Assembly: GCA_963662465.1 (NCBI GenBank) | Contig: OY759599.1 | Span: 512,001 to 576,000 of the forward strand | Reading direction: 5' to 3' | Source of the DNA: Desulfatiglandales bacterium | GTDB lineage: Bacteria > Desulfobacterota > DSM-4660 > Desulfatiglandales > Desulfatiglandaceae | DNA length: 64,000 bases | Shown: positions 3,429 through 20,148 of the stretch, in pieces | Layout: each line of letters starts with the position of its first letter | How positions within the stretch are numbered: the first letter of the stretch is position 1 | Translations under genes and position numbers: made by a program | Notes under the pieces: generated by a model | What the model was told of the DNA's origin: nothing | The model's input: the letters and a program-made list of their open reading frames with translations, nothing else | Databases searched by the model: none

Positions 3429-3456
3429 ATAAATTAAGGAGAACACCAATAACACC

Positions 3457-5181
3457 ATGCGATATTCAACCTATTTTATTCCCACGCAGAAAGAAGTGCC
3501 GGCCGATGCCGAGATTATCAGTCACCAGCTCATGGTTCGAGCCGGCATGATTCGCAAGCTCACATCGGGCATTTATACTTATCTTCCCGCGGGCCTTAGG
3601 TCCATCCGGAAGGTGGAAAACATCGTCCGGGAAGAGATGAACCGGGCAGGGGCCATCGAAATCCTCATGCCCGCTGTTCAGCCGGCGGAGCTGTGGCAGG
3701 AGAGCGGTCGGTGGGAATATTACGGCCGTGAACTGCTGAGGTTCAAAGACCGTCACGACCGGGAGGCCTGTTTCGGACCCACCCACGAAGAAGTGATCAC
3801 GGACCTGGTGCGAAAAGAGATACACTCCTACAAACAGCTGCCCATGAACCTCTATCAGATTCAGACCAAGTTTCGGGATGAAATTCGCCCCCGTTTCGGG
3901 CTCATGCGAGGTCGTGAATTCATTATGAAAGACGCCTACAGCTTTGATGTGGATGAAGCGGGGGCCGCTCGCAGCTACGAGGCCATGTATGCGGCCTATG
4001 AACGGATATTTCAACGATGCGGTTTGAAATTCAGGGCCGTCGAAGCGGACTCGGGCGCCATCGGCGGCAGTTATTCCCACGAGTTTATGGTGTTGGCGGA
4101 ATCGGGGGAGGATCAGATTGTCAATTGCACCAAATGCAGTTATGCGGCCAACCTGGAACGGGCCGAAGTGAAAGAAGGGGATTCCCAGCCTGATTCCGAT
4201 GCCTTTGAGGTCTTGGCCCGAGTGGATACGCCCAATCAGAGAACCATTGACGAAGTGACAAAATTTCTGGATATCGGCCCCGAACAACTAGTCAAGACCC
4301 TGATCTATGTGGTGGATGAAGCGCCGGTGGCGGTGTTGTTGCGCGGCGATCATGAATTGAATGAAGCCAAGCTGAAAAATGCCTTGAATGCACAGGTCGT
4401 TGAAATGGCTTCCGAGGGATTGGTGAAAGATGTTACCGGCGCCCCCACGGGGTTTGCGGGTCCGGTGGGGTTGAAGATCAAAGTGGTGGCTGATAACGCC
4501 CTCTTGGCCATGAAGAACTTTGTGGTGGGGGGGAACGAAAAAGACCTCCACCTGAAAAACGTGAACTTTCAGCGGGATTTCAAGGCGGCATTTTTCGGTG
4601 ATCTGCGAACCATCGCGCCTGGTGACAGGTGTCCCCGGTGCGGCGGGGAAATTATTTTTGGACGGGGCATTGAAGTGGGGCATGTGTTTAAGCTGGGCAC
4701 AAAATACAGCGAGGCCATGAAAGCCGTCTTTTTGAATGAACAGGGAAAAGAGATTCCCATGATCATGGGGTGCTACGGCATCGGCATCGGCCGCACTGTT
4801 GCGGCGGCCATTGAGCAGAACCATGACAAGGACGGTATTGTTTTTCCGGCGCCGGTAGCGCCCTTCGAGGTGACGATTCTGCCGCTGCAGATGCACGATG
4901 AAGCCGTGGTGGAAACAGCTATGAAACTCTATGAAGATCTTTTGGCCAAGGGGATTGATGTACTGCTGGATGATCGGGATGAGCGGGCCGGTGTTAAATT
5001 TAAAGATGCCGACTTGCTGGGCATTCCGGTGCGCATCACCGTGGGGTCCCGGGGGCTTAAAAACGGGCAGGTGGAGGTCAAGCTTCGGTCTGAGCCGGAG
5101 AGTTTCATGCTGCCCGTGGACAATGCCGCGACGGCCATTTCGGAGACGGTGAAAGGCCTGTATGATTCGATTAAAATCTGA
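3457..5181 (+). CDS. proS: Proline--tRNA ligase (with INS editing domain)
   Basis: 574 aa with [35 protein letters not shown] and MGCYGIG motifs. Confidence 0.98.
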
Positions 5182-5612: not shown

Positions 5613-6452
5613 ATGGATATCGTGTCAGATACTTTGACTCCTAGAGGATGCGCATGCGTGGTCATCAGCCTTAAAAAAAATATCGATCTTTTCGGCTTCA
5701 AGACGAAGTCAGGCAGTACCCATTTGGCCCGGACCATCATGCTGGAGGATTTAGAGACGCTACTTTCATATATCGACAATCCAGAAGCGGGAAAAGCCAC
5801 CTACATCCGCGCCATAGAAGAGGAAAACTGTTTAGGGAAACGTTCCGGCAGAACCAGAACACTTACAGCCAGGCACCTCGTTGCCCTTTATGGACTGGAG
5901 CCATCTATCACCATTTTCAGAGGTCTGCTTTTTTTCTGGTCCAAAGACCTTGAGGCGCATCCATTGTTGGCACTGCTCTGTGCTTATGCGAGGGACCCCT
6001 TGCTACGAAAAAGTGCACCATTTATTTTGGCAATGACCGAAGGAGCAAACGTATTTAGGGAAAACCTGGAGGCCTTCATGGAAACCGAAGACCCCGGGCG
6101 TTTCAGCGGGGCAACGCTCAAATCATTGGCGCAGAATATCAATGCCACTTGGACCAAATCCGGCCATCTAAAAGGGAGAGTAAAAAAGGTTCGAGCGCGG
6201 GCTAATCCAACCCCCGGCGTCGTATCTTACGCCCTTTTCCTCGGATATTTAGAGGGCCTCCGGGGGCAATCTCTATTTCAATCCCAGTATGCCAGGATCC
6301 TTGATTGTTCGGCGGATTACGCCATGGAACTGGCGGAGCAGGCTTCGCGCCGGGGATGGTTTGTTTTCAAACGAATCGGCGATGTAATGGAGGTCCAGTT
6401 CCGTCATCTTTTAACCGCAAAAGAAATGGAGTGGCTTCGTGAGCAAGGTTAA
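5613..6452 (+). CDS. brxA: BREX protein BrxA (start codon uncertain)
   Basis: First gene of the BREX operon, overlapping brxB. Motifs HLARTIMLEDL, RDPLLR and FSGATLKSLAQN; the call rests mainly on position. Confidence 0.7.
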   Translation: MDIVSDTLTPRGCACVVISLKKNIDLFGFKTKSGSTHLARTIMLEDLETLLSYIDNPEAGKATYIRAIEEENCLGKRSGRTRTLTARHLVALYGLEPSITIFRGLLFFWSKDLEAHPLLALLCAYARDPLLRKSAPFILAMTEGANVFRENLEAFMETEDPGRFSGATLKSLAQNINATWTKSGHLKGRVKKVRARANPTPGVVSYALFLGYLEGLRGQSLFQSQYARILDCSADYAMELAEQASRRGWFVFKRIGDVMEVQFRHLLTAKEMEWLREQG

Positions 6453-6990
6453 GCGGCTGTTAAAGAATTACAGCAGGTTTATTTCCATCCCCTGGCGAGG
6501 AGATGCGGCGGCGGCTCAACGGGTTATTTTCTGCGTATATAACGAAAATGATGAGCTTCGCCTGCGGGCCAGGATCGACGAGTTTGAGATTGCCACAAGA
6601 CAACCGGGACACGATTGGGCCTTGTTCGATCTCACAGATACCTTCCCTCAATGGCTGGCTGAACAACGCTACGCCAAGAGCTATTTTCAGAAACCACAGC
6701 TTCTTTCAGCACTTTTACCCAAATACTTGGCCTATGTCGCGGAAACGTTCCGGAAATTCCTCCAGGAACGGGCCGTTGATGAAACTTCCGTGGTGGCCCT
6801 TAAAGGGGTTGGTGCTCTTTTCGGTTTTATCAAAGTGAAAGATGTCGTGGATCACCTGGCACCCATGGCGCTCGGAAGATTGTTGGTTTTTTTCCCGGGC
6901 AGCTACGAGAAAAACAATTACCGGCTTCTGGACGGTTATGACGGGTGGAACTATCTCGCGGTGCCGATTACAGCGGACAAGGAATTCTAA
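6439..6990 (+). CDS. brxB: BREX protein BrxB (DUF1788-like)
   Basis: 183 aa with GVGALFGF, LLVFFPG and WNYLA; lies between brxA and brxC. Confidence 0.8.
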   Translation: MSKVKRLLKNYSRFISIPWRGDAAAAQRVIFCVYNENDELRLRARIDEFEIATRQPGHDWALFDLTDTFPQWLAEQRYAKSYFQKPQLLSALLPKYLAYVAETFRKFLQERAVDETSVVALKGVGALFGFIKVKDVVDHLAPMALGRLLVFFPGSYEKNNYRLLDGYDGWNYLAVPITADKEF

Positions 6991-7004
6991 CTCAGGGGTT
7001 AAAC

Positions 7005-10000
7005 ATGCAGAACAGGCAAATTTATGTAACGGATCCGGAAGCCCGAAAATTGGTGAACGAGGGGGTTGCAAGCGTCAATGATGACATGAGTCCCGCAGCG
7101 CTTGCGGTGCTGCGCTATGAGCTTGAAACCTTTGTTTGCGATGGCCAATATGAAAAGGGTTTGGCCCATATTCTGGAAACCTATCTGAAGAATATCCAGC
7201 AGGCACAACAGCCCGCTGTGTGGGTCAGCGGCTTCTACGGTTCCGGCAAGTCGCACCTGGTTAAAATGCTCCGCGCCCTGTGGGTGGATACCTCTTTTGA
7301 AGACGGCGCCACTGCCCGTGGAATTGCCGCTCTGCCGCAGGACATTGGAGATCATTTAAAAGAACTGACCACGCAAGGCAAACGCCATGGAGGGCTCCAC
7401 GCCGCTTCAGGCACACTGGGCTCCGGCGCCACCGGAAGTGTTCGTCTGGCCCTTTTGGGCATCATTTTTAAATCAGTTGGGCTCCCGGAGCAGTACCCCT
7501 TGGCTCGGTTCGTACTGTGGCTCAAAAAGGAAGGGATTCAGGAAGAGATAGAAGAACAGTTAAAAGCCCATGGATACGATTGGGAAGAGGAGCTGGATAA
7601 TCTCCAAGTTGCCGAAGGTCTGCACCAGGTACTTTCGGAAGTGAAACCCAATCTTTTTCCATCGCCGGCATCCTGTGTGGAGACGCTGAACAATCGTTAT
7701 CCGTTTGTACAGGATATCTCCAGCGATGAAATGGTCAAGGCCATCCGACAAGCCTTGACCCGGAATGGCAAATTTCCCCTGACCCTGGTGGTTCTTGATG
7801 AGGTCCAGCAGTATATCGCCGAAGACAGCCAACGGTCCGATGAGGTCCGAGAGGCTGTGGAGGCCTGCTGCAAGAACATCGGCTCTAAACTTCTGTTTGT
7901 GGGAACCGGCCAGACAGCTGTAACCGGAACGCCTAACCTGAAAAAGCATGAAGGTCGATTCACCATCCGCATTGAACTTTCAGATGCCGATGTGGATGCG
8001 GTAATCCGCCAGGTTATCCTTGCCAAGAAGCCCGACGCCATTTCCCCTATTAATGCGCTTATGGAAACCAACCTGGGCGAAATCTCAAGACATCTATCCG
8101 ACACAACCATCGGGCATCGCCAGAATGATATTCCCTTTTTCCCTCAGGATTACCCCATCCTTCCGGTACGTCGGCGGTTCTGGGAACATACCCTGCGGGT
8201 GCTGGATCCCACGGGGACCGACAGCCAGCTTCGCAATCAACTGAGCATGGTGCACAAGGCCATACAAACCAACCTGGACCACCCAATGGGACATGTCATT
8301 CCAGCGGATTATCTCTATTTCGATTCGGCCGATAAACTCTTACAGTCTCGCATACTACCGCGAAAAGTACATGAAAAGACCATGATTTGGCTTAATGGAT
8401 CGGAAGAGGAGCGCCTTCTGGGAAGGGCCTGCGGCCTGGTTTTCCTCATCAATAAATTGGCGGGAAGCAACAAAGACATCGGCATTAAAGCCACCGTTGA
8501 TGCGATTGCCGATCTCATGGTGGAAGATCTTTCCAAAGGAAGTGGGGCATTGAGGGGAAAGCTTCCGGGTCTCTTGGGCAAAGCTGAACTGCTCATTAAG
8601 GTGGGGGATGAATATCGTATCCAGACCGAAGAGAGCGCTGCCTGGAACGATGAATTCCTAAGCCAGAGAAGCAGGCTTGCCAGTGAAGCATATCGCATAG
8701 AGGCGGAACGTGGGGATCGTATTCGTCGAAAATTCGGGGAACTGGTTAATAAACTTAACTTCACCCAGGGCAGTTCCAAGGTAACGCGAGACATACATCC
8801 CATATTCGATGCCGAACTTCCACCTGACAGTGATCAAAAGATTTGTGTCTGGGTCCGGGACGGTTGGAGCACGGATGAGAAATCCGTGTTGGCGGACGCA
8901 AGGCAGGCCGGCAATCAATCACCCACGGTGTTTGTTTTTATACCCAAAAGGTCTGCGGATGATCTACGTCACAATCTCATGGAATATAAGGCTGCCGTGG
9001 CCACACTGGAAAAACGGGGGGTCTCCAACACGTCCGAAGGCGTCGAGGCCCGGGCCGCCATGGAAACAACCCGTCAAGCCTCTGAGGGAAGGATCCAAGA
9101 ACTGATCGAGGATGCTTTTTCCGGTGCGCGCATCTATCAAGGCGGTGGGAACGAACTGGTGGGGAACGACTTCACAGAAGTGGTGTTGGAAGGGGCCGAA
9201 AATGCCGTTAAACGCCTTTATCCCCAGTTTCAGGCGGCAGATCATCCCGGATGGGAAAAGGTTTTTTCCCTGTCTCGCAAAGGTTCCCCTGATGCCCTCA
9301 AGGCCATTGGCGATGACGGTGAAGTTTCAAAGAACCCTGTTTGCAAGGCCATTTTGGGGCATATCGCCGGTGGGAAGAAGGGCGTTGATATTCGGCGCCA
9401 TTTTGAATCCCCACCCTTTGGATGGTCAAGGGATGCTGTTGATGGGGGCCTTCAGGCCTTGATGGTGGCCGGATTGATTCGTGCACAAAATGAACTGGGC
9501 AATGGGATTGATCCCAGAGAAATTGAAAGGAAGGCCATCGGAAAAGTCCTCTTTAAGGTGGAGTCCGCCACCGTAACCACGGCGCAAAGGATCCAGATAC
9601 GAAAGCTTTTTCAAAAGACGGGCATCAAAGCGAAGCCCGGGGAAGAACTTTCGTCCGTGGCTCTTTTTCTTCAGAAAATGGGAGAACTAGCCGAAGCGGC
9701 AGGCGGAGAGGCGCCCAAACCCGAACTCCCTGATACCGCCTTTATTGATGAGCTGCGCCTAACTGCTGGAAACGAGCAACTGCTGGCCGTTTACAACCGG
9801 CGCGATGATCTAACGCAGGCCATTGATTCCTGGACCCAGCTGGGCAAGCGGATCACCGTGCGGTGGCCCGATTGGATACTATTGAAACGCCTGGTGGGTC
9901 ATGCTACGGACATCAAAGACGCGGAAGTGATGCAGGCGCAGGCCACAACCATCGAAAAACAGCGCCAACTCCTGGAAGAGCTTGATTTGATCTTGCCCCT

Positions 10001-10442
10001 GGCTGCAAACCTGACCCAAATGCTTCGCGAAGAATTAAACCGGCTGGACAAGGAATATAAGGCGCTACACCAGAAAGGGATGGAGCGCCTCAAAGGAGAC
10101 GCCAACTGGCAGCAACTGGAACCTGAACAGCGCAACACCCTGCTGGCCGATCAGAAATTAACGCTTGAAGACCAGCCCCGGGTAGAGCTGAGCAATGTTG
10201 ACGATGTTTTGGCAACCCTGGGTCGAATAGGTCTTGATATGTTTACCGCCACCGTCGCCGCCATGCCCTCCCGTTTCGATAACGTTGCCAAAAGCGCCGC
10301 AGAGCTGTGCGAACCGGAGGTTCAGTTCATCCATGTGCCACGCCGAACGCTTAAGACCGAAATAGATATCGATACATGGATCGAGGAGGTGAAACAGCAA
10401 CTCAAAGACGCACTCCATGAAGGGCCGATCATTATTCGCTAA
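7005..10442 (+). CDS. brxC: BREX P-loop ATPase BrxC
   Basis: YELETFVCDGQY, Walker A WVSGFYGSGKSH, Walker B VVLDEVQQYI and PPFGWSRD; ~1145 aa. Confidence 0.92.
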   Translation: MQNRQIYVTDPEARKLVNEGVASVNDDMSPAALAVLRYELETFVCDGQYEKGLAHILETYLKNIQQAQQPAVWVSGFYGSGKSHLVKMLRALWVDTSFEDGATARGIAALPQDIGDHLKELTTQGKRHGGLHAASGTLGSGATGSVRLALLGIIFKSVGLPEQYPLARFVLWLKKEGIQEEIEEQLKAHGYDWEEELDNLQVAEGLHQVLSEVKPNLFPSPASCVETLNNRYPFVQDISSDEMVKAIRQALTRNGKFPLTLVVLDEVQQYIAEDSQRSDEVREAVEACCKNIGSKLLFVGTGQTAVTGTPNLKKHEGRFTIRIELSDADVDAVIRQVILAKKPDAISPINALMETNLGEISRHLSDTTIGHRQNDIPFFPQDYPILPVRRRFWEHTLRVLDPTGTDSQLRNQLSMVHKAIQTNLDHPMGHVIPADYLYFDSADKLLQSRILPRKVHEKTMIWLNGSEEERLLGRACGLVFLINKLAGSNKDIGIKATVDAIADLMVEDLSKGSGALRGKLPGLLGKAELLIKVGDEYRIQTEESAAWNDEFLSQRSRLASEAYRIEAERGDRIRRKFGELVNKLNFTQGSSKVTRDIHPIFDAELPPDSDQKICVWVRDGWSTDEKSVLADARQAGNQSPTVFVFIPKRSADDLRHNLMEYKAAVATLEKRGVSNTSEGVEARAAMETTRQASEGRIQELIEDAFSGARIYQGGGNELVGNDFTEVVLEGAENAVKRLYPQFQAADHPGWEKVFSLSRKGSPDALKAIGDDGEVSKNPVCKAILGHIAGGKKGVDIRRHFESPPFGWSRDAVDGGLQALMVAGLIRAQNELGNGIDPREIERKAIGKVLFKVESATVTTAQRIQIRKLFQKTGIKAKPGEELSSVALFLQKMGELAEAAGGEAPKPELPDTAFIDELRLTAGNEQLLAVYNRRDDLTQAIDSWTQLGKRITVRWPDWILLKRLVGHATDIKDAEVMQAQATTIEKQRQLLEELDLILPLAANLTQMLREELNRLDKEYKALHQKGMERLKGDANWQQLEPEQRNTLLADQKLTLEDQPRVELSNVDDVLATLGRIGLDMFTATVAAMPSRFDNVAKSAAELCEPEVQFIHVPRRTLKTEIDIDTWIEEVKQQLKDALHEGPIIIR

Positions 10443-10497: not shown

Positions 10498-13400
10498 ATG
10501 CCACCGCTAGACAGACAGATCCGGAATACACTTGAGAGAGCTATTAAAGATGCCCGTGATATCGCCGAGGCTGCTGCCCGCGCTGCGCTGGAGCAACTGG
10601 GTGTGGGTGAATCTACCCCGTTTTCACATTTGAGCAATGAGGAAAGGGTGCTCCGCCGAAAGCTGCGTGTCCATGGCCGTCAGCTGGGAGACGTTAGCAA
10701 CGGTGGGGGCAGACAGGAAATTGATCGGTTGACCGAAGAGGTGGCCTATGAGCATTGGCACCGTATGCTGTTTGCCCGTTTTCTGGCGGAGAACAATCTC
10801 TTGATGTATCCGGATCCGGATGATCCGGTAGCCGTTTCACTGGAAGAGTGCGAAGACCTGGCCCCTGATGAAGGTGCAGCCAATGGCTGGGAGCTGGCCG
10901 CTCGTTTTGCTGCCCGCATGCTACCCCAGATTTTCCGGCCCGACTCCCCGGTATTTCAGCTAACGCTGCCGCCGGAACACCAGCAGAAACTTGAGCAACT
11001 TGTTGCGGATTTGCCACCGGAGGTGTTTGCCGCCTCCGATTCTTTAGGCTGGGTGTATCAGTTCTGGCAGGCGAAAAAGAAAGACGAGGTTAATGCCTCC
11101 GAGGTGAAGATCGGCGCACGGGAACTGCCTGCCGTCACCCAGCTTTTCACCGAGCCGTATATGGTCAGCTTCCTCTTGGATAACTCCCTGGGGGCATGGT
11201 GGGTGAAGCAGTTGTCAGTTGTCAGTGGTCAGTTATCAGGAAAAGCCCGAGAGATTTTGACAACAGCTGAAAATGAGCAGGAACTTCGTGATTTTTTCAG
11301 TATCCCCGGTGTTCCCCTTTCTTATTTAAGGTTCGTTAAAACTGATAACTGCACGCTGAAGCCTGACAACTCCAGCGTCTTCGAGGGTGAACATTGGATG
11401 CCCGCAAGCGGCTGGTTTGAGGGATGGCCCGATAACCTCTCAGAATTAAAAACACTGGACCCTTGCTGCGGCTCGGGACATTTTCTGGTGGCGGCCTTTT
11501 TGATGTTGGTGCCCATGCGCATGGAACTGGACGGCCTCTCGGTCCGGGAAGCCGTGGATGCCGTGCTACATGAAAACATCCATGGCCTTGAAATTGATAA
11601 ACGCTGTGTGGAGCTGGCCGCTTTTGCTCTGGCTTTGGCGGCATGGCAATATCCTGGTGCCAGTGGTTACCGAACTTTGTCGGAGCTGAATATAGCGTGT
11701 TCAGGGCTTGCAATCAGCACCAAAAAAGACGAGTGGCTCGCTTTGGCAGGTGCCGACACAAATTTGTGTTTTGCGTTGGAGGAGCTCTACAAGCAGTTCA
11801 AGGATGCATCGGTTCTAGGCAGTTTGATCAACCCAAAGACTAGCCTTGGGAAAGGATCGCTGTTCGAGCTGAAGTGGGAGGATGTTGGCCCGCTGCTAAC
11901 GAAGGCGTTGTTGGAAAAGCCCGATGACGAAATCCTAGAAATAGGTGTGATAGCAAGGGGTTTGTCAAAATCCGCGCAATTGTTGGCTAATAGATACCAT
12001 TGCCTGTTTACAAATGTTCCCTATCTAACTCGGGGTAAACAAGGTGATACGCTTCGTAGCTTCCTAGAATATCAACACAAATATAGCAAACACGATTTGG
12101 CGACTGCCTTTTTAGAGAGATGCCTTGATTTTTGTGCAGACGGTGGCACCGTTAGCGCTGTTATTCCACAAAACTGGATGTTTCTTTCCAGTTATCGCAA
12201 TTTTAGGCAGGGACTACTTAAAGAGCATCAATGGAATAGTGTGATTCGTCTTGGGTTTGCAGCATTTGATGTAATGGATTGGTGGGCATTCAATACAAGC
12301 TTGTTTGCAATAACAAGGGGGGAAAATAAAAATAGATTTTTTTTTGGGTTGGACGTCTCCGAGCCCCGTACCATCACCGAAAAATCCGCTGGGCTCTTGA
12401 CTTCGGAAATTAAATGCGTGGAACAAGCCAGTCAGCTAAAAAATCCAGATGCGCGCATTGCTTTTGATGAGATGCAGGGTGAATTACTTGAGGAATATGC
12501 AACCTCCCTAAATGGAATGCACGGTGCGGATGCTCCTAGATTCAGGATGTATTACTGGGAAGTGAACGGTTTAACGACTTGGAGATTTCTCCAAAACACT
12601 GTGGAATCGATCACCGTTTTTGGCGGGCGAAGCCAAGTTTTTTATTGGCCTAATGATGTTTTTTACCTACATAATTCTAAAGCACGTATTCAGGGAATGA
12701 AAGGATGGGATAGAAAAGGTGTAGCGATTAGCATGATGGGTACACTTCCTTGTACACTATCTACTGGCGAGGCATTTGATATTAGTTGTTCCTCAGTTAT
12801 ACCCAAAATAACCGCTCACCTCCCCTCCATTTGGTGCTTCTGCTCCTCACCGAAGTACAACAAAACGGTACGTTGTATAGATCAAAAAGTGAATGTTACC
12901 AACGCCACGCTGGCCAAAGTGCCCTTCGACCTTAACCAATGGACCAAGGTCGCCGAAGAAAAATACCCCAACGGCCTACCCAAACCCTATTCCCATGATC
13001 CCACACAATGGATCTTCCACGGCCATCCCTCTGGCTCTGTGGTGTGGGATGAGAAAAGCAAATGGACCGCGCGCGGCTCGCTCCGCAACGATGACACGGT
13101 TCTGCATGTCGCAGTTGCCCGCCTTCTCGGTTACCGCTGGCCTGCGGAGTTGGACCTAAACATGGAAGTGGCCGATGAACAGCGCGAATGGGTAAAACGT
13201 TGTGGACAGCTTCTGCCCTACGCCGACAAAGACGGCATCGTCTGCATCCCGCCGGTGCGAGGTGAAGCGACATGCGCCGATCGCTTGCTCAACCTGCTGG
13301 CGGCCACCTACGGCGATGTCTGGTCCAATGGCACCTTGCCTGAACTTCTCAAAAACACCAACCATGCTGGCAAAACCCTTGAAACCTGGCTGCGAGAGAA

Positions 13401-13953
13401 ATTTTTCATCCAACACTGCAAACTGTTCAAACACCGCCCCTTCATCTGGCACATCTGGGACGGCCTACGCGACGGTTTTGCCGCCCTGGTCAACTACCAC
13501 AAGCTTGATCAAAAAAACCTGGAAACCCTCATCTACACCTACCTGGGTGACTGGATCAGCCGCCAGAAGCAGGATATCACAACCGGTGTGGACGGCGCGG
13601 AAGAAAAACTGGCGGCCGCCGAAGGGCTCAAAAAACGCCTGGAATTGATCCTCGAAGGCGAATCCCCTTACGATATCTTCATCCGGTGGAAACCCATTGA
13701 AAAGCAACCCATGGGTTGGAACCCGGACTTAAACGACGGCGTGCGTTTAAACATAAGACCCTTTATGACCGTCCCGGATGTGGGCAAAAAAGGGGCCGGC
13801 GTCCTGCGCGACAAACCCAACATCAAATGGAACAAGGACCGGGGCAAGGATGTGGTCTCCGCGCCGTGGTATCACCTGTTCAAAGGGGACCGGATCAATG
13901 ATCATCATCTGACCCTTGAGGAAAAAAATAAAGTTAGAAATCCAAACAGATAA
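10498..13953 (+). CDS. pglX: BREX adenine methyltransferase PglX (BrxX)
   Basis: EEVAYEHWHRMLFARF, LGWVYQFW, PAVTQLFT, motif I LDPCCGSGHFL, motif IV variant TNVPY, RPFIWH and PDLNDGVRLNIRP. Confidence 0.92.
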   Translation: MPPLDRQIRNTLERAIKDARDIAEAAARAALEQLGVGESTPFSHLSNEERVLRRKLRVHGRQLGDVSNGGGRQEIDRLTEEVAYEHWHRMLFARFLAENNLLMYPDPDDPVAVSLEECEDLAPDEGAANGWELAARFAARMLPQIFRPDSPVFQLTLPPEHQQKLEQLVADLPPEVFAASDSLGWVYQFWQAKKKDEVNASEVKIGARELPAVTQLFTEPYMVSFLLDNSLGAWWVKQLSVVSGQLSGKAREILTTAENEQELRDFFSIPGVPLSYLRFVKTDNCTLKPDNSSVFEGEHWMPASGWFEGWPDNLSELKTLDPCCGSGHFLVAAFLMLVPMRMELDGLSVREAVDAVLHENIHGLEIDKRCVELAAFALALAAWQYPGASGYRTLSELNIACSGLAISTKKDEWLALAGADTNLCFALEELYKQFKDASVLGSLINPKTSLGKGSLFELKWEDVGPLLTKALLEKPDDEILEIGVIARGLSKSAQLLANRYHCLFTNVPYLTRGKQGDTLRSFLEYQHKYSKHDLATAFLERCLDFCADGGTVSAVIPQNWMFLSSYRNFRQGLLKEHQWNSVIRLGFAAFDVMDWWAFNTSLFAITRGENKNRFFFGLDVSEPRTITEKSAGLLTSEIKCVEQASQLKNPDARIAFDEMQGELLEEYATSLNGMHGADAPRFRMYYWEVNGLTTWRFLQNTVESITVFGGRSQVFYWPNDVFYLHNSKARIQGMKGWDRKGVAISMMGTLPCTLSTGEAFDISCSSVIPKITAHLPSIWCFCSSPKYNKTVRCIDQKVNVTNATLAKVPFDLNQWTKVAEEKYPNGLPKPYSHDPTQWIFHGHPSGSVVWDEKSKWTARGSLRNDDTVLHVAVARLLGYRWPAELDLNMEVADEQREWVKRCGQLLPYADKDGIVCIPPVRGEATCADRLLNLLAATYGDVWSNGTLPELLKNTNHAGKTLETWLREKFFIQHCKLFKHRPFIWHIWDGLRDGFAALVNYHKLDQKNLETLIYTYLGDWISRQKQDITTGVDGAEEKLAAAEGLKKRLELILEGESPYDIFIRWKPIEKQPMGWNPDLNDGVRLNIRPFMTVPDVGKKGAGVLRDKPNIKWNKDRGKDVVSAPWYHLFKGDRINDHHLTLEEKNKVRNPNR

Positions 13954-14040
13954 CAACCATATTGCACAATAACACTTCTTATGTTGTATTGCGGAATTCA
14001 TGTTATGGAATAAAACCCACAAGAATGAGGGAGGCATATC

Positions 14041-15147
14041 ATGTTGAAGAGGCTATACGCCAACAACTATCGTTGTTTGGTCAATTTTGAGATACATTTC
14101 GATGAGCTGACCCTTTTAATCGGCCCGAACGGTGGTGGAAAATCCACCTTGTTTGATTTCCTGTACAAGATTCGCCACCTGATAGTGGATAATGCCAAGG
14201 TCGCGGAAGTATTTCCACCCGAGGATCTTACCGCCTGGATCAATCAAACCGAACAATCTTTTGAGCTTGACGTGCAAGGTGAGGATGGTCTTTTTTCCTA
14301 CAAGATGGTCATTTCCCATCATCCCGAAACCAGGAAACAGAGAATTGAATTGGAACATCTATTATTGGATGGGAAAACGCTGTTCGAGTTCAAAATGGGG
14401 GAAGTAAAGCTCTACCACGATGACCATAAACCGGGCCAGGAATATTCTTTCGACTGGTCCGTTTCGGCCCTGGCAACCATTGCTTCAAGACCAGACAATA
14501 AGAAACTGACATGGTTTAAGGGATGGCTGGAGAGATTATTTATTGTCAGTCTTCAGCCCAAGGCCATGGTTTCGGAAACGGCGGAAGAATCAAGCTGGCT
14601 GCACCGGAATGGAAGCAATTTTGCCTCATGGTATCGCTATATATCCCAAGAGCACCAGGACAGAATCTTCGGATTGACTGAACAACTTCGCGACGTCCTG
14701 CCCGGCTTTCATGCCTTTAAGCTGGAACAGGCGGGAAAGCATCGAATTCTGAAAGCCGGATTTGGCGGCGAAGATCAAAACGCACCAAAAATATATTTTG
14801 ATTTTGAGCAACTCTCAGATGGTCAACGCATCATCATGATTCTCTATTCTCTACTGATCGGCCTACAGGCCATGGGCCATACCCTGTTTATCGAAGAACC
14901 GGAAAACTATGTTTCTTTACCGGAAATCCAACCCTGGCTGATGGAACTAAACGATGCTTGTGGTGAGGGGTTCCCGCAAGCGGTATTGATTAGCCATCAT
15001 CCGGAGCTGATCGACTATTTAGGTCCTGAAAGCAGTCAATGGCTTGTAAGGGACCCTCTGGGTCCGAGCCGCGTAAAAAAACTACCAACAGAAATTGAAC
15101 AGGGGCTGAAGCTTTCCGAAAAAATTGCCAGAGGGTGGGTCGAATGA
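14041..15147 (+). CDS. ABC-type (AAA_21/AAA_15-like) ATPase inserted in BREX
   Basis: N-terminal NNYRCL, Walker A GPNGGGKS, signature LSDGQR, Walker B/D-loop LFIEEPENY and H-loop ISHHP; no transmembrane segments. Confidence 0.85.
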   Translation: MLKRLYANNYRCLVNFEIHFDELTLLIGPNGGGKSTLFDFLYKIRHLIVDNAKVAEVFPPEDLTAWINQTEQSFELDVQGEDGLFSYKMVISHHPETRKQRIELEHLLLDGKTLFEFKMGEVKLYHDDHKPGQEYSFDWSVSALATIASRPDNKKLTWFKGWLERLFIVSLQPKAMVSETAEESSWLHRNGSNFASWYRYISQEHQDRIFGLTEQLRDVLPGFHAFKLEQAGKHRILKAGFGGEDQNAPKIYFDFEQLSDGQRIIMILYSLLIGLQAMGHTLFIEEPENYVSLPEIQPWLMELNDACGEGFPQAVLISHHPELIDYLGPESSQWLVRDPLGPSRVKKLPTEIEQGLKLSEKIARGWVE

Positions 15148-15704
15148 GCAAACGACGCGTGAAAATCGTAGTTCTTTGTGAGGATTCACAACACGAAGCC
15201 TTTATTCGAAGATTCCTCAAGGGAATGGGGTGGGATACAAGAGTGATCCGCATCGAAAAAAGCCCATCAGCCCTCGGTGCCGCGGAACAGTGGGTAAGAG
15301 AAAAATTCGTTTACGAACTGATGGCTTATCGGCAGCGGCGACAACGGGCGGCCTCTGCTCTAATGACAATGATTGATGCGGATAAAAAAGACGTGCTGGA
15401 TCGGATCAATGAATTCGAGGAGACATGTAATGCTCAGCAAATAGCATTTCGGGCTGTTGACGAGGCTGTGGCAATTGCAGTCCCGAAACGAAATATCGAG
15501 ACATGGATCCACTACCTGGATGGAAACACTGTGGATGAAAACCGATCCAAACCTTATCGCAAGTTGGAAAGGGCACGTAATTGTAAACCCGCTGTGGACA
15601 GGCTCGTACAATTGTGTAAGACAACCGGACTTCCATCGGATACCCCCCAAGCGTTGTTGACGGCCTGCCATGAGTATAATGCTAGAATAAGGCCGATGGG
15701 TTAA
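15144..15704 (+). CDS. TOPRIM-like partner of the ATPase (DUF4276/RloB/AriB-like)
   Basis: ATGA overlap with the ATPase gene. VVLCED, MIDAD (DxD) and PKRNIETW motifs. Confidence 0.6.
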   Translation: MSKRRVKIVVLCEDSQHEAFIRRFLKGMGWDTRVIRIEKSPSALGAAEQWVREKFVYELMAYRQRRQRAASALMTMIDADKKDVLDRINEFEETCNAQQIAFRAVDEAVAIAVPKRNIETWIHYLDGNTVDENRSKPYRKLERARNCKPAVDRLVQLCKTTGLPSDTPQALLTACHEYNARIRPMG

Positions 15705-15748
15705 ATTGGCCTTATTGAGGTTTTCAAAGATCAGCCGGGAGGTACTTA

Positions 15749-18103
15749 TTGACCCAAATAATTGAAATACTGACCCAAACCATCCGTTCCGCTGCCGTAT
15801 ACAATCCGGAAGTGCAAGTGGCCCCTGCATGCATCCTTTGGCCGGACCGGGACCACCAGTGGGAAGCAGTTATTCTGCGGCTTCAGGCCGAGTTGCCGGA
15901 GCTGTTTGTTTTGGGGGACTATGCCCCGGAAAAGCGAACCGGCCCAGCCATCTGGTTGCGCTGTATTCTTGCAGACATGGTGGAAGAGGTTTCGATCCCG
16001 GAGGGGTGGACACCGGTCTTTTATCTACCCGGTATCAGCCGCCAAGACCTGCGTGCCGTTGAAAGCTGTCCCGATCATCTAAAACCGTTGGCCGAACTCC
16101 AGTACAGGGGAGTGATCTGGTCGCAGATCAACGCCAAGGACTGGACCATCCTCGCGTTTCTGAAATCGGATCAGGGGGGATTAGGCCTGGATGTGGCCCA
16201 GGACAATGACGCCAAAAACGCCATGCAGTTGGCACTCTATCGGTTAGTGGATGAAGATGTGGCCTTGTTAGAAGGTAAACGCCTTGATAAAGATTACTTC
16301 AATACCCTGCTAACCGGTGGCGATCCAGTACGGGACCTGCTGCAATGGCTTGACCAGGGCGAGGCCTTTCAGGCTGCCCATGGCGAAAACGAATGGCGGG
16401 CCTTTCTGGAAGTCTGTAAATCTCAACTGGCCTTTAACCCCCAAAATGAGGGCGTGTTAACCGGCGCTTCCAAACTTGCGGAGCAAGAAGGCCCCTGGCA
16501 TGTGGTATGGGAACGGTTTTGCGAGGCCCCCAAACGATACCCCAACATTCCCACCCAGATCCGAAAATGCCGGCCCCCCAGTGACACCATGCTATGGGAC
16601 ATGGGTGGCGAAAAATATCATGGATGGCCCCAATGGAATACAGATCAGGAAGCCTTACTCCGTGAAGCATTGAATGGATTGAATGCCCTACCACCCCATG
16701 AGGCTCGAAATCGGCTGGCGGAATTGGAGAAACGCCATCATCAAAGGCGGCTTCTGGTCTGGGCCGAACTGGAAGAAGCGCCTCTTGCACGCGCACTCAA
16801 ACATCTGGCGGTTCTGGCGGAGACCACAGCAAGCTCAATTGCAGCGGGTTCACCACAAGAGATGGCCGCAGCCTACGACCATTCGGGCTGGCTGGCGGAT
16901 GATGCCGTCGTGCATGCCCTTGCCTGTGTGGCAAGAAATGAAGATTTTGAAGCCGTTACTTCGGCCATTTGCGCTGTTTACACAGCCTGGGCTGAAGACG
17001 CAGCGCTGCACCTCCAAAACGCAGTGGAAAAGGAAGGCTATCCGGGGGAATCCGTTGTCACACAGAAACCGAGGTCTTACAGCGTTGATGAATGTGTGCT
17101 GTTTGTGGATGGGCTTCGTTTCGATGCGGCCAGAAGGCTGGGGGAACTTCTTTCTCAAGAGGGCTGCCGGCTGGAAGAACGGATTTGCTGGGCGCCGCTA
17201 CCCACGCTCACTGCCACGGGAAAGCCTTTTGCATCGCCTGTATGGGATCAGATCAGAGGTCAAGATGCCGGCAATGATTTTGAGCCCTGCGTGTCAAAAA
17301 CCGGGAAATCGCTGGCAGGCGGTTATCATTTGAAGAAACTGCTGGCGGATGCCGGTTGGAAAGTCCTTAAAGGCATAGCCGGCGGGGACGACAAAATAAA
17401 CGCCTGGTGTGAATTTGGAAATATTGACCATGAGGGCCACGACAGAGGGTGGAAACTGGCGGGTCGCCTGGAGAACATGTTGAAGGAAATTCGCGACCAA
17501 ATAACGGGGCTTTTGTCGGCAGGCCGGCAGGCCGTTCGTATCGTCACCGACCATGGATGGTTGTTGCTGCCGGGAGGACTCCCCAAAACCGAGCTTCCCA
17601 GTGCGCTTACGGAGAATAAATGGGGCCGTTGTGCGGCGTTAAAGCCTGGGGCATCATCCGATGTTCGAGTATTTCCATGGTACTGGAATCCCAATCAATA
17701 CGTGGCATTGGCAAGCGGTATCAGCTGCTTCCGTAAGGGGATGGAGTACACCCATGGAGGGCTGAGCCTACAGGAAAGCCTGCTGTTGGAACTAAAGATC
17801 ACGCCCCAGGCCGCAACGCCCGCTCACACGGTTCAAATCACTGATGTGGTATGGAAGGGATTACGGTGCACCATTGGGGCGGAGGGAAAATTTGAAGGGT
17901 TGTCTCTGGATATTCGTAAGCAGCCTGGAAACCCGTCAAGCAGTGTGGTGTTGAGCGCCAAACCTCTCAAAAAAAACGGGACCGCTTCAGTGGTTGTGGA
18001 GGATGAAGAAATGGAGGGATCATCTGCTTTCATCATTTTATTCGATACGGATGGAGCTCCGACGGCACAGACGGATACAACCATTGGTGGGGACGAAAAA
18101 TGA
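15749..18103 (+). CDS. pglZ: BREX phosphatase-family protein PglZ
   Basis: LFVDGLRFD, LPTLTATGK, IDHEGH, IVTDHGW and YTHGGLSLQE motifs. Confidence 0.92.
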   Translation: MTQIIEILTQTIRSAAVYNPEVQVAPACILWPDRDHQWEAVILRLQAELPELFVLGDYAPEKRTGPAIWLRCILADMVEEVSIPEGWTPVFYLPGISRQDLRAVESCPDHLKPLAELQYRGVIWSQINAKDWTILAFLKSDQGGLGLDVAQDNDAKNAMQLALYRLVDEDVALLEGKRLDKDYFNTLLTGGDPVRDLLQWLDQGEAFQAAHGENEWRAFLEVCKSQLAFNPQNEGVLTGASKLAEQEGPWHVVWERFCEAPKRYPNIPTQIRKCRPPSDTMLWDMGGEKYHGWPQWNTDQEALLREALNGLNALPPHEARNRLAELEKRHHQRRLLVWAELEEAPLARALKHLAVLAETTASSIAAGSPQEMAAAYDHSGWLADDAVVHALACVARNEDFEAVTSAICAVYTAWAEDAALHLQNAVEKEGYPGESVVTQKPRSYSVDECVLFVDGLRFDAARRLGELLSQEGCRLEERICWAPLPTLTATGKPFASPVWDQIRGQDAGNDFEPCVSKTGKSLAGGYHLKKLLADAGWKVLKGIAGGDDKINAWCEFGNIDHEGHDRGWKLAGRLENMLKEIRDQITGLLSAGRQAVRIVTDHGWLLLPGGLPKTELPSALTENKWGRCAALKPGASSDVRVFPWYWNPNQYVALASGISCFRKGMEYTHGGLSLQESLLLELKITPQAATPAHTVQITDVVWKGLRCTIGAEGKFEGLSLDIRKQPGNPSSSVVLSAKPLKKNGTASVVVEDEEMEGSSAFIILFDTDGAPTAQTDTTIGGDEK

Positions 18104-20148
18104 CAGAAATGGATACCATTGACAAACTCGCCGCCGCATCCCTTGAGGGATATTTGGTCCGAAAAGACCTGGTCCGAACGTTTAGCCGACAGTTTCCCGT
18201 GCCCACTTACGTGGTAGAGTTTCTTCTGGGACGGTATTGTGCCAGTATCGATCCCGAGGAAATCGAAGAGGGCCTGGAGATCGTCCAACGCCAGCTTCAG
18301 GCGCGCACCGTCAAGGCGGGCGAGGCCGAACTCTTCAAGGCAAGGGCAAGGGAAAATGGAGAGGTGAAGATTATCGACCTGGTCACAGCGCGCCTGGATG
18401 CCTCAACGGATTCCTATTTGGCCGCTCTTCCCAGTCTACAGCTCACCAACGTGCGGATCAGCCCGGAACTGGTCAATACCCATGAGCGGATGCTCACAGG
18501 AGGATTTTACGCGGAGATCTCTCTCACCTACGACGCCGCCATCGCCCAGGAAAACAAGGGAAGGCCCTTTGGTGTGGAAACACTGCGGGAGATCCAGCTA
18601 TCCAAACGGGAGGTGTTGGACGAGCTGGCGGAGGCGCGAAAATCCTTTGATGTGGAACAATGGAAAGCGTTTTTACTTCGAAGTATCGGAATCGAGCCCA
18701 CAACACTTTCGGAAAGGGCCAAAAATGCCTTTTTGCTCAGGATGGTGCCCTTTGTGGAGCGAAATTACAACCTGGTGGAACTGGGGCCGCGCGGCACCGG
18801 AAAAAGCCATCTGTTTCAACAGATTTCACCCTATGCCCATCTGGTTTCAGGTGGAAAGGCAACGGTGGCCAGGATGTTTGTCCATATGGGCACGGGCCAG
18901 CGGGGTCTAGTGTGCCAGTACGATGTGGTTTGTTTTGACGAAATTTCGGGCATTTCTTTTGATCAAAAAGATGGCGTTAATATCCTCAAGGGGTATATGG
19001 AGTCCGGCGAATTCAGTCGGGGCAAGGAGAGCATCCGGGCGGATGGGTGTATCGTTCTCGTGGGGAACTTTGATGTAGATGTGGAACATCAGCAGCGTAT
19101 CGGTCATCTTTTCGGCCCTATGCCTACGGAAATGCGCGATGATACCGCATTTATGGACCGTATCCATGGCTATCTGCCCGGGTGGGATGTGCCCAAGATT
19201 CGGAAAGAGCTGCTCACGAACCATTTCGGCCTGGTTAGCGATTTCCTATCCGAATGTTGGAGCAGGCTTCGAGACCAGAGCCGGATTCATGCCCTGCAAA
19301 ATAAGGTTTTTTTTGGAGGATCACTCAGTGGTCGAGATACTAATGCGGTTAACAAAACGGTTAGCGGCCTTCTGAAATTGATTCATCCAGGTGCTGACAC
19401 CGATTATTCCGAAGAAACCCTGGAATGGGCTGTCCGCATCGCCATGGAGGCCAGGCGCAGGGTGAAGGAACAACAGAAGAGGATCGGTGCTGCTGAGTTT
19501 AGAAATACCCATTTCAGCTATGTCATGGGAGCCGATGGGATTGAGCAGTTTGTTTCAACACCCGAGCTTCAGAGCGAAAACAGCATCGGGAGTGATCCTT
19601 TGGAACCGGGTCAGATCTGGACCATCAGCCCTGGAGGAATGGACGACCATCCAGGCTTGTACCGCATTGAAGTAAACGAAGGACCGGGTTCGGGGGTAAA
19701 AATTCTCAATAAGCCGGTTCCACCCGCCTTTCGGGAGAGTACCGGATTTGCGGAGCAGAACCTGTACGCCCGGGCCGGGCAATTGGTAGGGGACAAGGAT
19801 CCGCGGCACCATGAATTTACAGCCCAGCTTCGCGCTTTTGATGCGTCCAAGTCAGGGGCAAAACTGGGTGTAGCCATCCTGATTGCTCTTTGTACCGCTC
19901 TCCTCAAGAAGAGCGTCCGGGGTGGACTGATCATTATCGGAGAAATCAACCTGGGTGGTTCCATAGAACCCGTCCATAATTCAGTCTCAATGGCCGAAAT
20001 CGCCGTGGAGAAAGGCGCCACTGCCCTACTCATGCCCGTCGCCTGTCGCCGCCGGCTATTCGATCTTTCTGACGACATGGCTACAAAGGTCGATATCCAG
20101 TTCTATTCCGATGCCAGGGATGCGCTTTTGAAGGCGATTGTGGATTAG
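18100..20148 (+). CDS. brxL: BREX Lon-like/AAA+ protein BrxL
   Basis: VPTYVVEFLLG, ELGPRGTGKSH, DVVCFDE, DTAFMDR and a C-terminal Lon-like domain; ATGA overlap with pglZ. Confidence 0.93.
   Translation: MTEMDTIDKLAAASLEGYLVRKDLVRTFSRQFPVPTYVVEFLLGRYCASIDPEEIEEGLEIVQRQLQARTVKAGEAELFKARARENGEVKIIDLVTARLDASTDSYLAALPSLQLTNVRISPELVNTHERMLTGGFYAEISLTYDAAIAQENKGRPFGVETLREIQLSKREVLDELAEARKSFDVEQWKAFLLRSIGIEPTTLSERAKNAFLLRMVPFVERNYNLVELGPRGTGKSHLFQQISPYAHLVSGGKATVARMFVHMGTGQRGLVCQYDVVCFDEISGISFDQKDGVNILKGYMESGEFSRGKESIRADGCIVLVGNFDVDVEHQQRIGHLFGPMPTEMRDDTAFMDRIHGYLPGWDVPKIRKELLTNHFGLVSDFLSECWSRLRDQSRIHALQNKVFFGGSLSGRDTNAVNKTVSGLLKLIHPGADTDYSEETLEWAVRIAMEARRRVKEQQKRIGAAEFRNTHFSYVMGADGIEQFVSTPELQSENSIGSDPLEPGQIWTISPGGMDDHPGLYRIEVNEGPGSGVKILNKPVPPAFRESTGFAEQNLYARAGQLVGDKDPRHHEFTAQLRAFDASKSGAKLGVAILIALCTALLKKSVRGGLIIIGEINLGGSIEPVHNSVSMAEIAVEKGATALLMPVACRRRLFDLSDDMATKVDIQFYSDARDALLKAIVD

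Follow-up and report, generated by a model that had tools for sequence, protein, structure and literature searches.

BREX, DISARM and restriction-modification systems often hold embedded genes, and one embedded candidate, HEC-01 ("Hma-embedded candidate 01"), is described in the cited part of Payne et al. (bioRxiv 10.1101/2024.01.29.577857) as an ABC ATPase together with a Toprim protein, embedded in Hma. We analyzed a 64,000-nucleotide stretch of the genome of a Desulfatiglandales bacterium (contig OY759599.1, positions 512,001 to 576,000 of the forward strand; the window, in whose numbering positions are given unless stated otherwise). There, a BREX operon contains two genes between pglX and pglZ that encode a 368-aa ATPase (P0001) and a 186-aa partner (P0002); we call the two genes together the cassette. 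Sequence comparisons place this pair as a divergent member of the catalogued HEC-01/MAD3-MAD4 class, and not as something new in kind.

Several other systems are close in architecture, as described in the cited parts of the respective papers. MAD3-MAD4 of the Pseudomonas aeruginosa MADS system is a 2:2 heterotetramer with ATPase and DNA-cleavage activity, and the coupling of ATP hydrolysis to cleavage is still unresolved in the published work (Nucleic Acids Research 2026, PMC13662399). DUF4276 and RloB have been placed in the Toprim superfamily, whose signature is a conserved glutamate after strand 1 and a DxD motif after strand 3, and Mad4 is a DUF4276 homologue (PMC12065111). In PARIS, AriA (55 kDa) is an ATPase with coiled-coil insertions and AriB (35 kDa) is a Toprim protein of the DUF4435 kind; partners of the DUF4276 and RloB types also occur in the AAA15/21 ATPase tree (PMC11464382). 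Modules of an OLD-type ABC-ATPase nuclease (OLD-ABC) were reported from at least 1242 taxa with BREX or BREX-related systems and were read as back-up effectors (PMC12839542), and the BREX operon of Salmonella D23580 has PARIS embedded in it (PMC11341690).

A two-gene cassette between pglX and pglZ

The ATPase gene (14041..15147, + strand; HEC-01A-like by Pfam, PADLOC and structural model) and the gene for the small Toprim-fold, DUF4276-like or HEC-01B-like protein (15144..15704, + strand) overlap by 4 nt, with the ATG of P0002 lying inside the ATGA at the ATPase stop. They are preceded by an 87-nt AT-rich spacer (13954..14040, + strand) that begins directly after the pglX stop codon (TAA at 13951-13953), and are followed, after a gap of 44 nt, by pglZ on the same strand. 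A sequence-only reading of this DNA had described a translationally coupled 368-aa ABC ATPase and a partner of about 186 aa behind an 87-nt AT-rich spacer within the BREX core, and our coordinates and motif assignments agree with it. At E ≤ 1e-3, 450 of 651 candidate relatives were retained for P0002 and 4027 of 6903 for P0001, numbers which indicate that both open reading frames are real genes and not chance frames.

The same reading had taken the interval between pglX and pglZ to be a site for accessory genes. This also held: published PARIS and OLD-ABC modules lie inside BREX, in the cited parts of those reports, and we found a canonical HEC-01 between the 3' end of pglX and pglZ in another genome of the same phylum (locus L092, 1-3373; G180:C31:39485-42857). 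Both L092 proteins matched their models over the full length (HEC-01A, E 1.8e-149; HEC-01B, E 7.2e-81). The L092 PglZ is 62% identical to the PglZ of the window, whereas between P0001 and the ATPase encoded in the L092 slot the identity is only 21%. The same slot thus holds different ATPase-Toprim cassettes in these two related BREX operons, which suggests, from the gene sequences, that cassettes are exchanged at this position.

The ATPase

P0001 is a soluble ABC ATPase by its motifs and its predicted fold. It contains a Walker A motif (GPNGGGKS), an ABC signature (LSDGQ) and an H-loop (SHHP), and has the Pfam signatures AAA_15, AAA_21, AAA_23 and ABC_tran. Among 79 aligned ATPase homologues, the residues G28-K34-S35, S259-G261-Q262, the catalytic E286 and H319/H320 were conserved in at least 95%. 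The best PADLOC match was to HEC-01A (PDLC04182, E 1.2e-24), with residues 2-347 aligned to positions 4-374 of the 406-position profile, followed by a second HEC-01A model (PDLC04178, E 1.6e-24) and by PDC-M25A (E 3.6e-22).

P0001 also matched the PADLOC models for AriA, AbiLi (E 1.3e-13), mad3, NsnB, GajA and PtuA. The AriA models that it matched are 304 and 373 positions long and cover the same residues of P0001 as Pfam AAA_21 and AAA_15; because the models share lengths and ranges with these two Pfam families, we infer that the AriA matches are generic. The fused AriAB model covered residues 2-42 only. The NCBIfam equivalog model antiphage_MADS3 scored 51.4 bits on P0001 and did not reach its cut-off of 420 bits.

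An AlphaFold model of P0001, built with 49 sequences, had a mean predicted local distance difference test score (pLDDT) of 91.9. It has a beta-rich insert at residues 71-136 and no long coiled coil. In a Foldseek comparison its best matches were PtuA (from Septu and retron systems), Rad50 and Thermus scotoductus (Ts) OLD, with E values from 3e-14 to 4e-12. These are the same company in which MAD3 is found among the structural matches given in the cited part of its report (PtuA, Rad50, OLD; PMC13662399).

The partner protein

By its predicted structure and by sequence comparison, P0002 belongs to a family of Toprim-fold proteins that is a sister to DUF4276, DUF3226 and RloB and has no Pfam model of its own. 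Its acidic motifs are VVLCED (9-14), MIDAD (76-80) and RNIETW (116-121). In an alignment of 125 diverse P0002 relatives, E13 and D78 were invariant, and D14, D80, E119 and the PKRNIETW block were conserved in at least 90% of the sequences. The structural model was predicted with high confidence (pLDDT 95.9; predicted template modelling score 0.91) and has the order b1-a1-b2-a2-b3-a3-b4-a4 followed by two C-terminal helices. Its strands comprise residues 7-12, 35-39, 71-76 and 109-112, so that E13 follows strand 1, D78-x-D80 follows strand 3, and a glutamate follows strand 4; this agrees with the OLD-type Toprim fold, a three-layer alpha/beta domain whose four strands are parallel. In a structural comparison with the model, Burkholderia pseudomallei (Bp) OLD, PH0156, GajA and AriB ranked 2, 3, 6 and 9.

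At E ≤ 0.1, Pfam DUF3226 matched 32 of the 125 aligned members (best E 6.1e-8), DUF4276 matched 20 (best E 6.8e-6), RloB matched three (best E 0.002) and OLD-like_TOPRIM matched one (best E 0.0078). At E ≤ 0.01, the PADLOC models HEC-01B (PDLC04202), PDC-M38B (PDLC04615) and mad4 matched 39, 14 and 12 members, with best E values of 2.9e-8, 4.5e-7 and 5.9e-5. We also gathered 14 canonical DUF4276 proteins with the Pfam model from genomes of the same phylum and aligned them with the 125-sequence alignment by hhalign. The two aligned over 110 columns (probability 94.25, E 1.1e-7), pairing E13, D78 and E119 of P0002 with the three invariant acidic residues (E, D, E) of DUF4276. The protein atlas clusters nearest to P0002 carry the automatic name "DUF4276 family protein".

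For P0002 itself there was no NCBIfam match and no match to the mad4 model at E ≤ 10. DUF4435 was not detected in P0002 at E ≤ 10 either, nor did it appear among the 25 families listed out of the 43 matched by family members. Searched against PDB chains, the family profile returned only chance-level rows (E 0.17 and 0.43), and the canonical DUF4276 profile returned none; MAD4 seems not to be among the chains searched.

Relationship to described systems

The likeness to HEC-01 is close in layout. In both, two coupled genes on one strand encode an ABC ATPase (about 370 aa) and a Toprim-like protein (about 200 aa) and are nested within a defence operon that is based on methylation; in L092 the same BREX slot is occupied by a canonical HEC-01. 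P0001 matches HEC-01A, and members of the P0002 family match HEC-01B. The two differ in the partner: P0002 falls below all HEC-01B thresholds and is a member of a large sister family for which Pfam has no model. In addition, P0002 keeps the full DxD, in contrast to the single invariant aspartate found in the 14 canonical DUF4276 proteins. MAD3-MAD4 is likewise a split ABC ATPase and a Toprim protein of the DUF4276 type that has a helical domain next to it; both pairs have an acidic Asp/Glu pocket, and the Walker A lysine is at position 34 in both. The window pair differs in the low score of P0001 on the MADS3 model (51.4 bits against the 420-bit cut-off), in the missing mad4 match of P0002 and in the host system, which is BREX and not MADS. 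The sequence-only reading had called the pair a possibly undescribed system. That claim does not stand, given that the architecture is that of the catalogued candidate HEC-01 and resembles MAD3-MAD4, for which the cited report gives structure and biochemistry.

PARIS shares the split arrangement of an OLD-like ABC ATPase and a Toprim effector, and it too is embedded between BREX genes in Salmonella. The proteins of the window are smaller (368 and 186 aa) and have neither DUF4435 nor a long coiled coil, and the AriAB model matches residues 2-42 only. We therefore rejected identity with PARIS, on the grounds that P0002 has no DUF4435, that the AriA matches look generic and that the sizes are unlike those of AriA and AriB. 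The sequence-only reading had considered a split module like OLD or PARIS; membership in PARIS is not borne out by these results. It had also judged the partner to be Toprim-like and too short for AriB. The predicted fold and the conserved E13, D78, D80 and E119 support the first judgement, and the length of 186 aa and the missing DUF4435 support the second.

The OLD nucleases (P2 Old, Ts OLD 6p74 and Bp OLD 6nk8) and GajA of Gabija provide the best structural matches and have both ABC ATPase and Toprim folds. In these proteins the domains are fused in one polypeptide, whereas here they are encoded by two genes, and sequence similarity is confined to the P-loop region. DUF3226 (PH0156, PDB 2p62) and RloB/AbiLii are linked to the cassette through the matches of P0002 family members (32 and three of 125) and, in the second case, through the AbiLi match of P0001. 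P0002 itself has no significant match to either (RloB, E 0.046).

Family size, pairing and phylogeny

An exhaustive search for the P0002 family yielded 1335 representative clusters at E ≤ 1e-3, 810 at 1e-10 and 61 at 1e-30. In a scan of 185,579 species genomes we obtained 231 pattern matches, 173 of which encode relatives, and kept 80 loci. The ATPase gene was directly upstream of the small gene in all 80. The two genes overlapped by 1-14 nt in 78 loci (14 nt in 38, 8 nt in 15, 4 nt in 18 and 1 nt in 7). In the two exceptions, L007 and L075, the ATPase gene is broken and the small gene looks intact: L007 has only an ATPase fragment, 953 nt upstream, and in L075 a premature stop lies 907 nt ahead of the small gene.

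We built a tree of the ATPases from 45 of 81 rows; the other 36 were cyanobacterial sequences or others outside the close clade of the window copy. In this tree the window copy grouped with L001, L003 and L002 with a Shimodaira-Hasegawa-like approximate likelihood ratio test (SH-aLRT) value of 95; the contig of L002 is too short to provide context. L005, which is in a BREX operon, grouped with L010, which is not (SH-aLRT 99), and linkage to BREX is therefore not stable. The close clade covers several phyla on short branches.

Two loci from metagenome-assembled genomes of Chlorobiaceae (L030, 5632-7267; L032, 8902-10522) have the pair inside a MacAB/TolC-like efflux operon, with an HlyD-family gene on one side and two MacB_PCD/FtsX permease genes on the other.

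Copies in the host genome

The genome that contains the window is a single contig of 8.16 Mb and has five copies of the two-gene family: the BREX copy, two intact pairs and two decayed ones (the coordinates in this section are those of the genome). The intact pairs are distant from the BREX copy, each at 37% identity. One (L082/L086, 2590886-2591401) sits between motA and flgE, interrupting a flagellar cluster; the other (L084/L087, 7503105-7503635) adjoins a Uma2 gene and a TRAP transporter. The decayed remnants are at 7900162-7900353 (L083/L088) and 3572552-3572794 (L085/L089); both are truncated; one has an in-frame TAA, and one lies close to a transposase. No member of the cassette family was detected at E ≤ 1e-5 in 60 relatives of the host (10 from its genus, 26 from its family and 24 from its order), of which 37 have a completeness of 90% or more and a contamination of 5% or less.

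The multi-copy and patchy distribution, the low GC content of the cassette and an upstream segment of 60-70 nt shared with other loci (see below) together point to a self-contained cassette that moves horizontally. Canonical DUF4276 (PF14103) genes occur separately in the same genome. A six-frame search, which did not retrieve P0002, found three of them, one partial, at 1730606-1731274, 4069291-4069869 and 1170832-1171170.

Proposed function and alternatives

We think it probable that P0001 and P0002 assemble into a complex with a Toprim nuclease under the control of the ABC ATPase, and that the cassette is an autonomous module, directed against phages or other mobile genetic elements, that BREX carries as cargo. 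If MAD3-MAD4 and PARIS are taken as analogues, the two proteins would bind each other, and the ATPase would either sense a cue of infection or hold the nuclease in check. The Toprim protein would then cut DNA or RNA, and the outcome would be phage restriction or abortive infection. The cassette would serve as a self-contained back-up in the pglX-pglZ slot and would take no part in BREX itself.

The position of the cassette invites a different account, in which it guards BREX in the manner of PARIS: the ATPase would sense phage proteins directed against BREX (DNA mimics of the Ocr type, for example) or a loss of BREX activity, free the Toprim nuclease and abort the infection. The slot is of the same type as that of PARIS in the BREX operon of Salmonella D23580 (PMC11341690), such a logic has been proposed in print for embedded ABC-ATPase systems (bioRxiv 10.1101/2024.01.29.577857; PMC12839542), and L001, L003 and L005 keep the cassette between pglX and pglZ, with L001 and L003 in one clade with the window copy (SH-aLRT 95). 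We nevertheless regard a guard role as unlikely. The pair is not PARIS, and the embedded Salmonella PARIS gave no response to Ocr and, in the cited part of that study, had no activating condition found for it (PMC11341690). In the DNA examined, 77 of the 80 loci had no BREX genes, and this mostly BREX-free distribution weakens the idea of a guard. Of the two intact paralogous pairs of the same genome, one is within a flagellar cluster and one next to a TRAP transporter, and the pairing of L005 with the non-BREX L010 speaks for unstable linkage. A closer tie still, with the pair as an integral accessory subunit of this BREX variant that is required for methylation or restriction, seems to us highly improbable. 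The two genes share the strand of the core genes, lie closely packed among them with 44 nt to pglZ, and keep this position in L001, L003 and L005. However, the family is overwhelmingly found without BREX, all six canonical type I genes are present at full length, the slot holds a different cassette in L092 and an extra gene in L003, and deletion of the embedded pair in Salmonella left methylation near the wild-type level, according to the cited part of the report (PMC11341690).

The distribution of the family could also be that of a selfish addiction cassette, similar to a toxin-antitoxin system, in which the ATPase restrains a nuclease toxin and the pair spreads for itself, with BREX as one landing site. 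The five copies in one genome, two of them decayed, with none found in 60 relatives, would fit, as would the insertions inside unrelated operons (the flagellar cluster and the MacAB-like operon of the Chlorobiaceae L030 and L032), the spread of the close clade across several phyla on short branches and the lower GC content of the cassette than of its flanks; the Pfam text for AAA_21 reads "putative AbiEii toxin, Type IV TA system". We hold this account to be improbable, since no integrase or transposase accompanied the cassette in 19 contexts and relatives of the class have reported defence activity in the cited parts of two papers (PMC13662399, PMC12881386), although defence and addiction roles are not mutually exclusive.

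Several observations weigh against an anti-phage module that rides in BREX as cargo. Published reports on the activity of HEC-01 representatives disagree: the representative of Payne et al. gave no protection against any tested phage in the cited part of that study (bioRxiv 10.1101/2024.01.29.577857), whereas an HEC-01 from a cold seep gave E. coli B protection from one or more of T7, T5 and T4 (PMC12881386). Taken alone, P0002 has only marginal matches. In Pfam these are RloB (E 0.046) and DUF4276 (PF14103, E 0.1, 13.2 bits against a gathering cut-off of 30.2 bits), and in PADLOC they are HEC-01B (best E 0.013, below every model threshold) and PDC-M38B (E 0.0013, residues 1-45). Foldseek found no match to the P0002 model in the PDB at E ≤ 0.001, and the top rows were generic alpha/beta folds. 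P0002 relatives were also not detected in 72,556 plasmids, in 50,697 phages or in IMG/VR, where the scan covered close relatives. In P0001 the Walker B aspartate is replaced by glutamate (E285; codon 14893-14895) in the window copy alone, a conservative change, and the other 78 of the 79 aligned sequences have aspartate. This unique residue means that the window copy may be attenuated, with a weakened ATPase. Run X1 has identical contigs; as these may share their source with the window, they are no independent evidence against a sequence error.

The neighbourhoods of the family count on the same side. BREX genes were found in three of the 80 loci (L001, L003 and L005, from Desulfobacterales-type metagenome-assembled genomes), in the order pglX-pair-pglZ. 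More than 5 kb was available on both sides of 43 loci; these gave 20 contexts after removal of shared flanks, 19 of them non-BREX. The four nearest genes on each side in these 19 contexts (142 proteins) were mostly housekeeping genes, including gyrA, topA and genes for ribosomal proteins, aminoacyl-tRNA synthetases and metabolic enzymes. Of the 142 proteins, 13 had PADLOC matches at E ≤ 1e-10. Eleven of these were partial-domain cross-matches of transporters, topoisomerase I, RecG and similar proteins that Pfam assigns to ordinary families, for the most part housekeeping ones, and two were full-length, a PD-T4-6-like kinase (L033) and a match to a cas-associated 2-oxoglutarate oxygenase model (L035). 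No integrase or transposase travelled with the cassette in the 19 contexts scanned. The P0002 family as a whole is thus not resident in defence islands in this sample. The sequence-only reading had named a lack of enrichment in defence islands as evidence against it, and this applies in part: beyond a small clade, the homologues lie among housekeeping genes rather than in defence islands.

A bolder version of the guard idea would make the DUF4276-like sister family, overlooked by current Pfam and PADLOC models, a class of "anti-anti-restriction" guards. The ATPase would recognize phage inhibitors of methylation-based immunity or the failure of BREX and unleash a minimal 186-aa Toprim nuclease, and repeated swapping of cassettes in the pglX-pglZ slot would reflect selection for such guards. 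We give this proposal a low probability.

The window pair opens no new kind of system; what is new is a divergent member with an uncurated partner family. It adds a case to the view that BREX operons carry interchangeable "back-up" cassettes pairing an ABC ATPase with a Toprim protein, and it defines a large partner family (1335 representative clusters, about 185 aa, acidic residues E13/D14, D78xD80 and E119). Because this family has no Pfam model and is only partly seen by PADLOC, defence-finding pipelines tend to miss such pairs. Strictly paired, present in multiple copies in one genome, not found in the relatives searched and mostly outside defence islands, the family is a useful test case for whether such genes are defence genes, selfish cassettes or both.

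The BREX operon and the boundaries of the cassette

The operon around the cassette is a complete type I BREX on the + strand. Its six canonical genes each have a full-length PADLOC match, with Pfam domains in support. Upstream of the cassette are brxA (5613..6452; BrxA, E 4.7e-104, residues 21-276 on profile positions 5-259 of 259), brxB (6439..6990; BrxB, E 8.9e-81, full length, and Pfam BrxB), brxC/pglY (6945..10442; BrxC, 1617 bits, profile positions 1-1146 of 1146) and the methyltransferase gene pglX (10498..13953; PglX, 1716 bits, full length, and Pfam Eco57I, MmeI_Mtase and N6_Mtase). Downstream are pglZ (15749..18103; PglZ, 1068.9 bits, profile positions 3-773 of 774) and brxL (18100..20148; BrxL, E 6.3e-300, and Pfam BrxL_N, BrxL_ATPase and Lon_C). 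By Pfam, the operon is flanked by housekeeping genes of the proS/ispG type on one side and by a relA/spoT gene on the other.

The GC content of the spacer is 36.8%, compared with 51.8% for the window, and that of the cassette is 46.7-48.5%, compared with 51-54.5% for the BREX genes. About 60-70 nt of the spacer align with the regions upstream of the ATPase genes of L001 and L003, where a TATAAT box occurs. The spacer thus likely carries an upstream or promoter region of the cassette's own, with a ribosome-binding site (GAGGGAGG), the promoter function being suggested by the sequence. A sigma-70 scan called no promoter on the + strand of the spacer. Metatranscriptome contigs X5 and X7 contain pieces of 150-199 nt with 0-1 differences inside both cassette genes, a weak hint only, as contigs from RNA libraries cannot show transcription.

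We looked for traces of insertion. Direct or inverted repeats flanking the cassette were short and of chance size, there were no tRNA genes within positions 1-30000 of the window, and when an allele lacking the cassette was sought in the half share of run X3, a fragmented assembly, no contig was seen to link pglX and pglZ across the cassette. An inverted repeat (15686..15716, + strand; 12-nt arms, 7-nt loop, 92% complementary) spans the P0002 stop codon and is followed by GAGGTTTTC; it may form an RNA hairpin at the 3' boundary of the cassette. A terminator scan called none 3' of the cassette.

In L003, an extra gene (3436-4131) lies between pglX and the cassette. It encodes a 231-aa protein with a C-terminal helix-turn-helix and weak PADLOC matches of the Csa3/CasR type (E 1e-7), and its product may be a regulator. 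Within pglX of the window, the interval 12001-13000 has a GC content of 43.8%, below that of the rest of the gene, and may correspond to a target-recognition region with a separate history.

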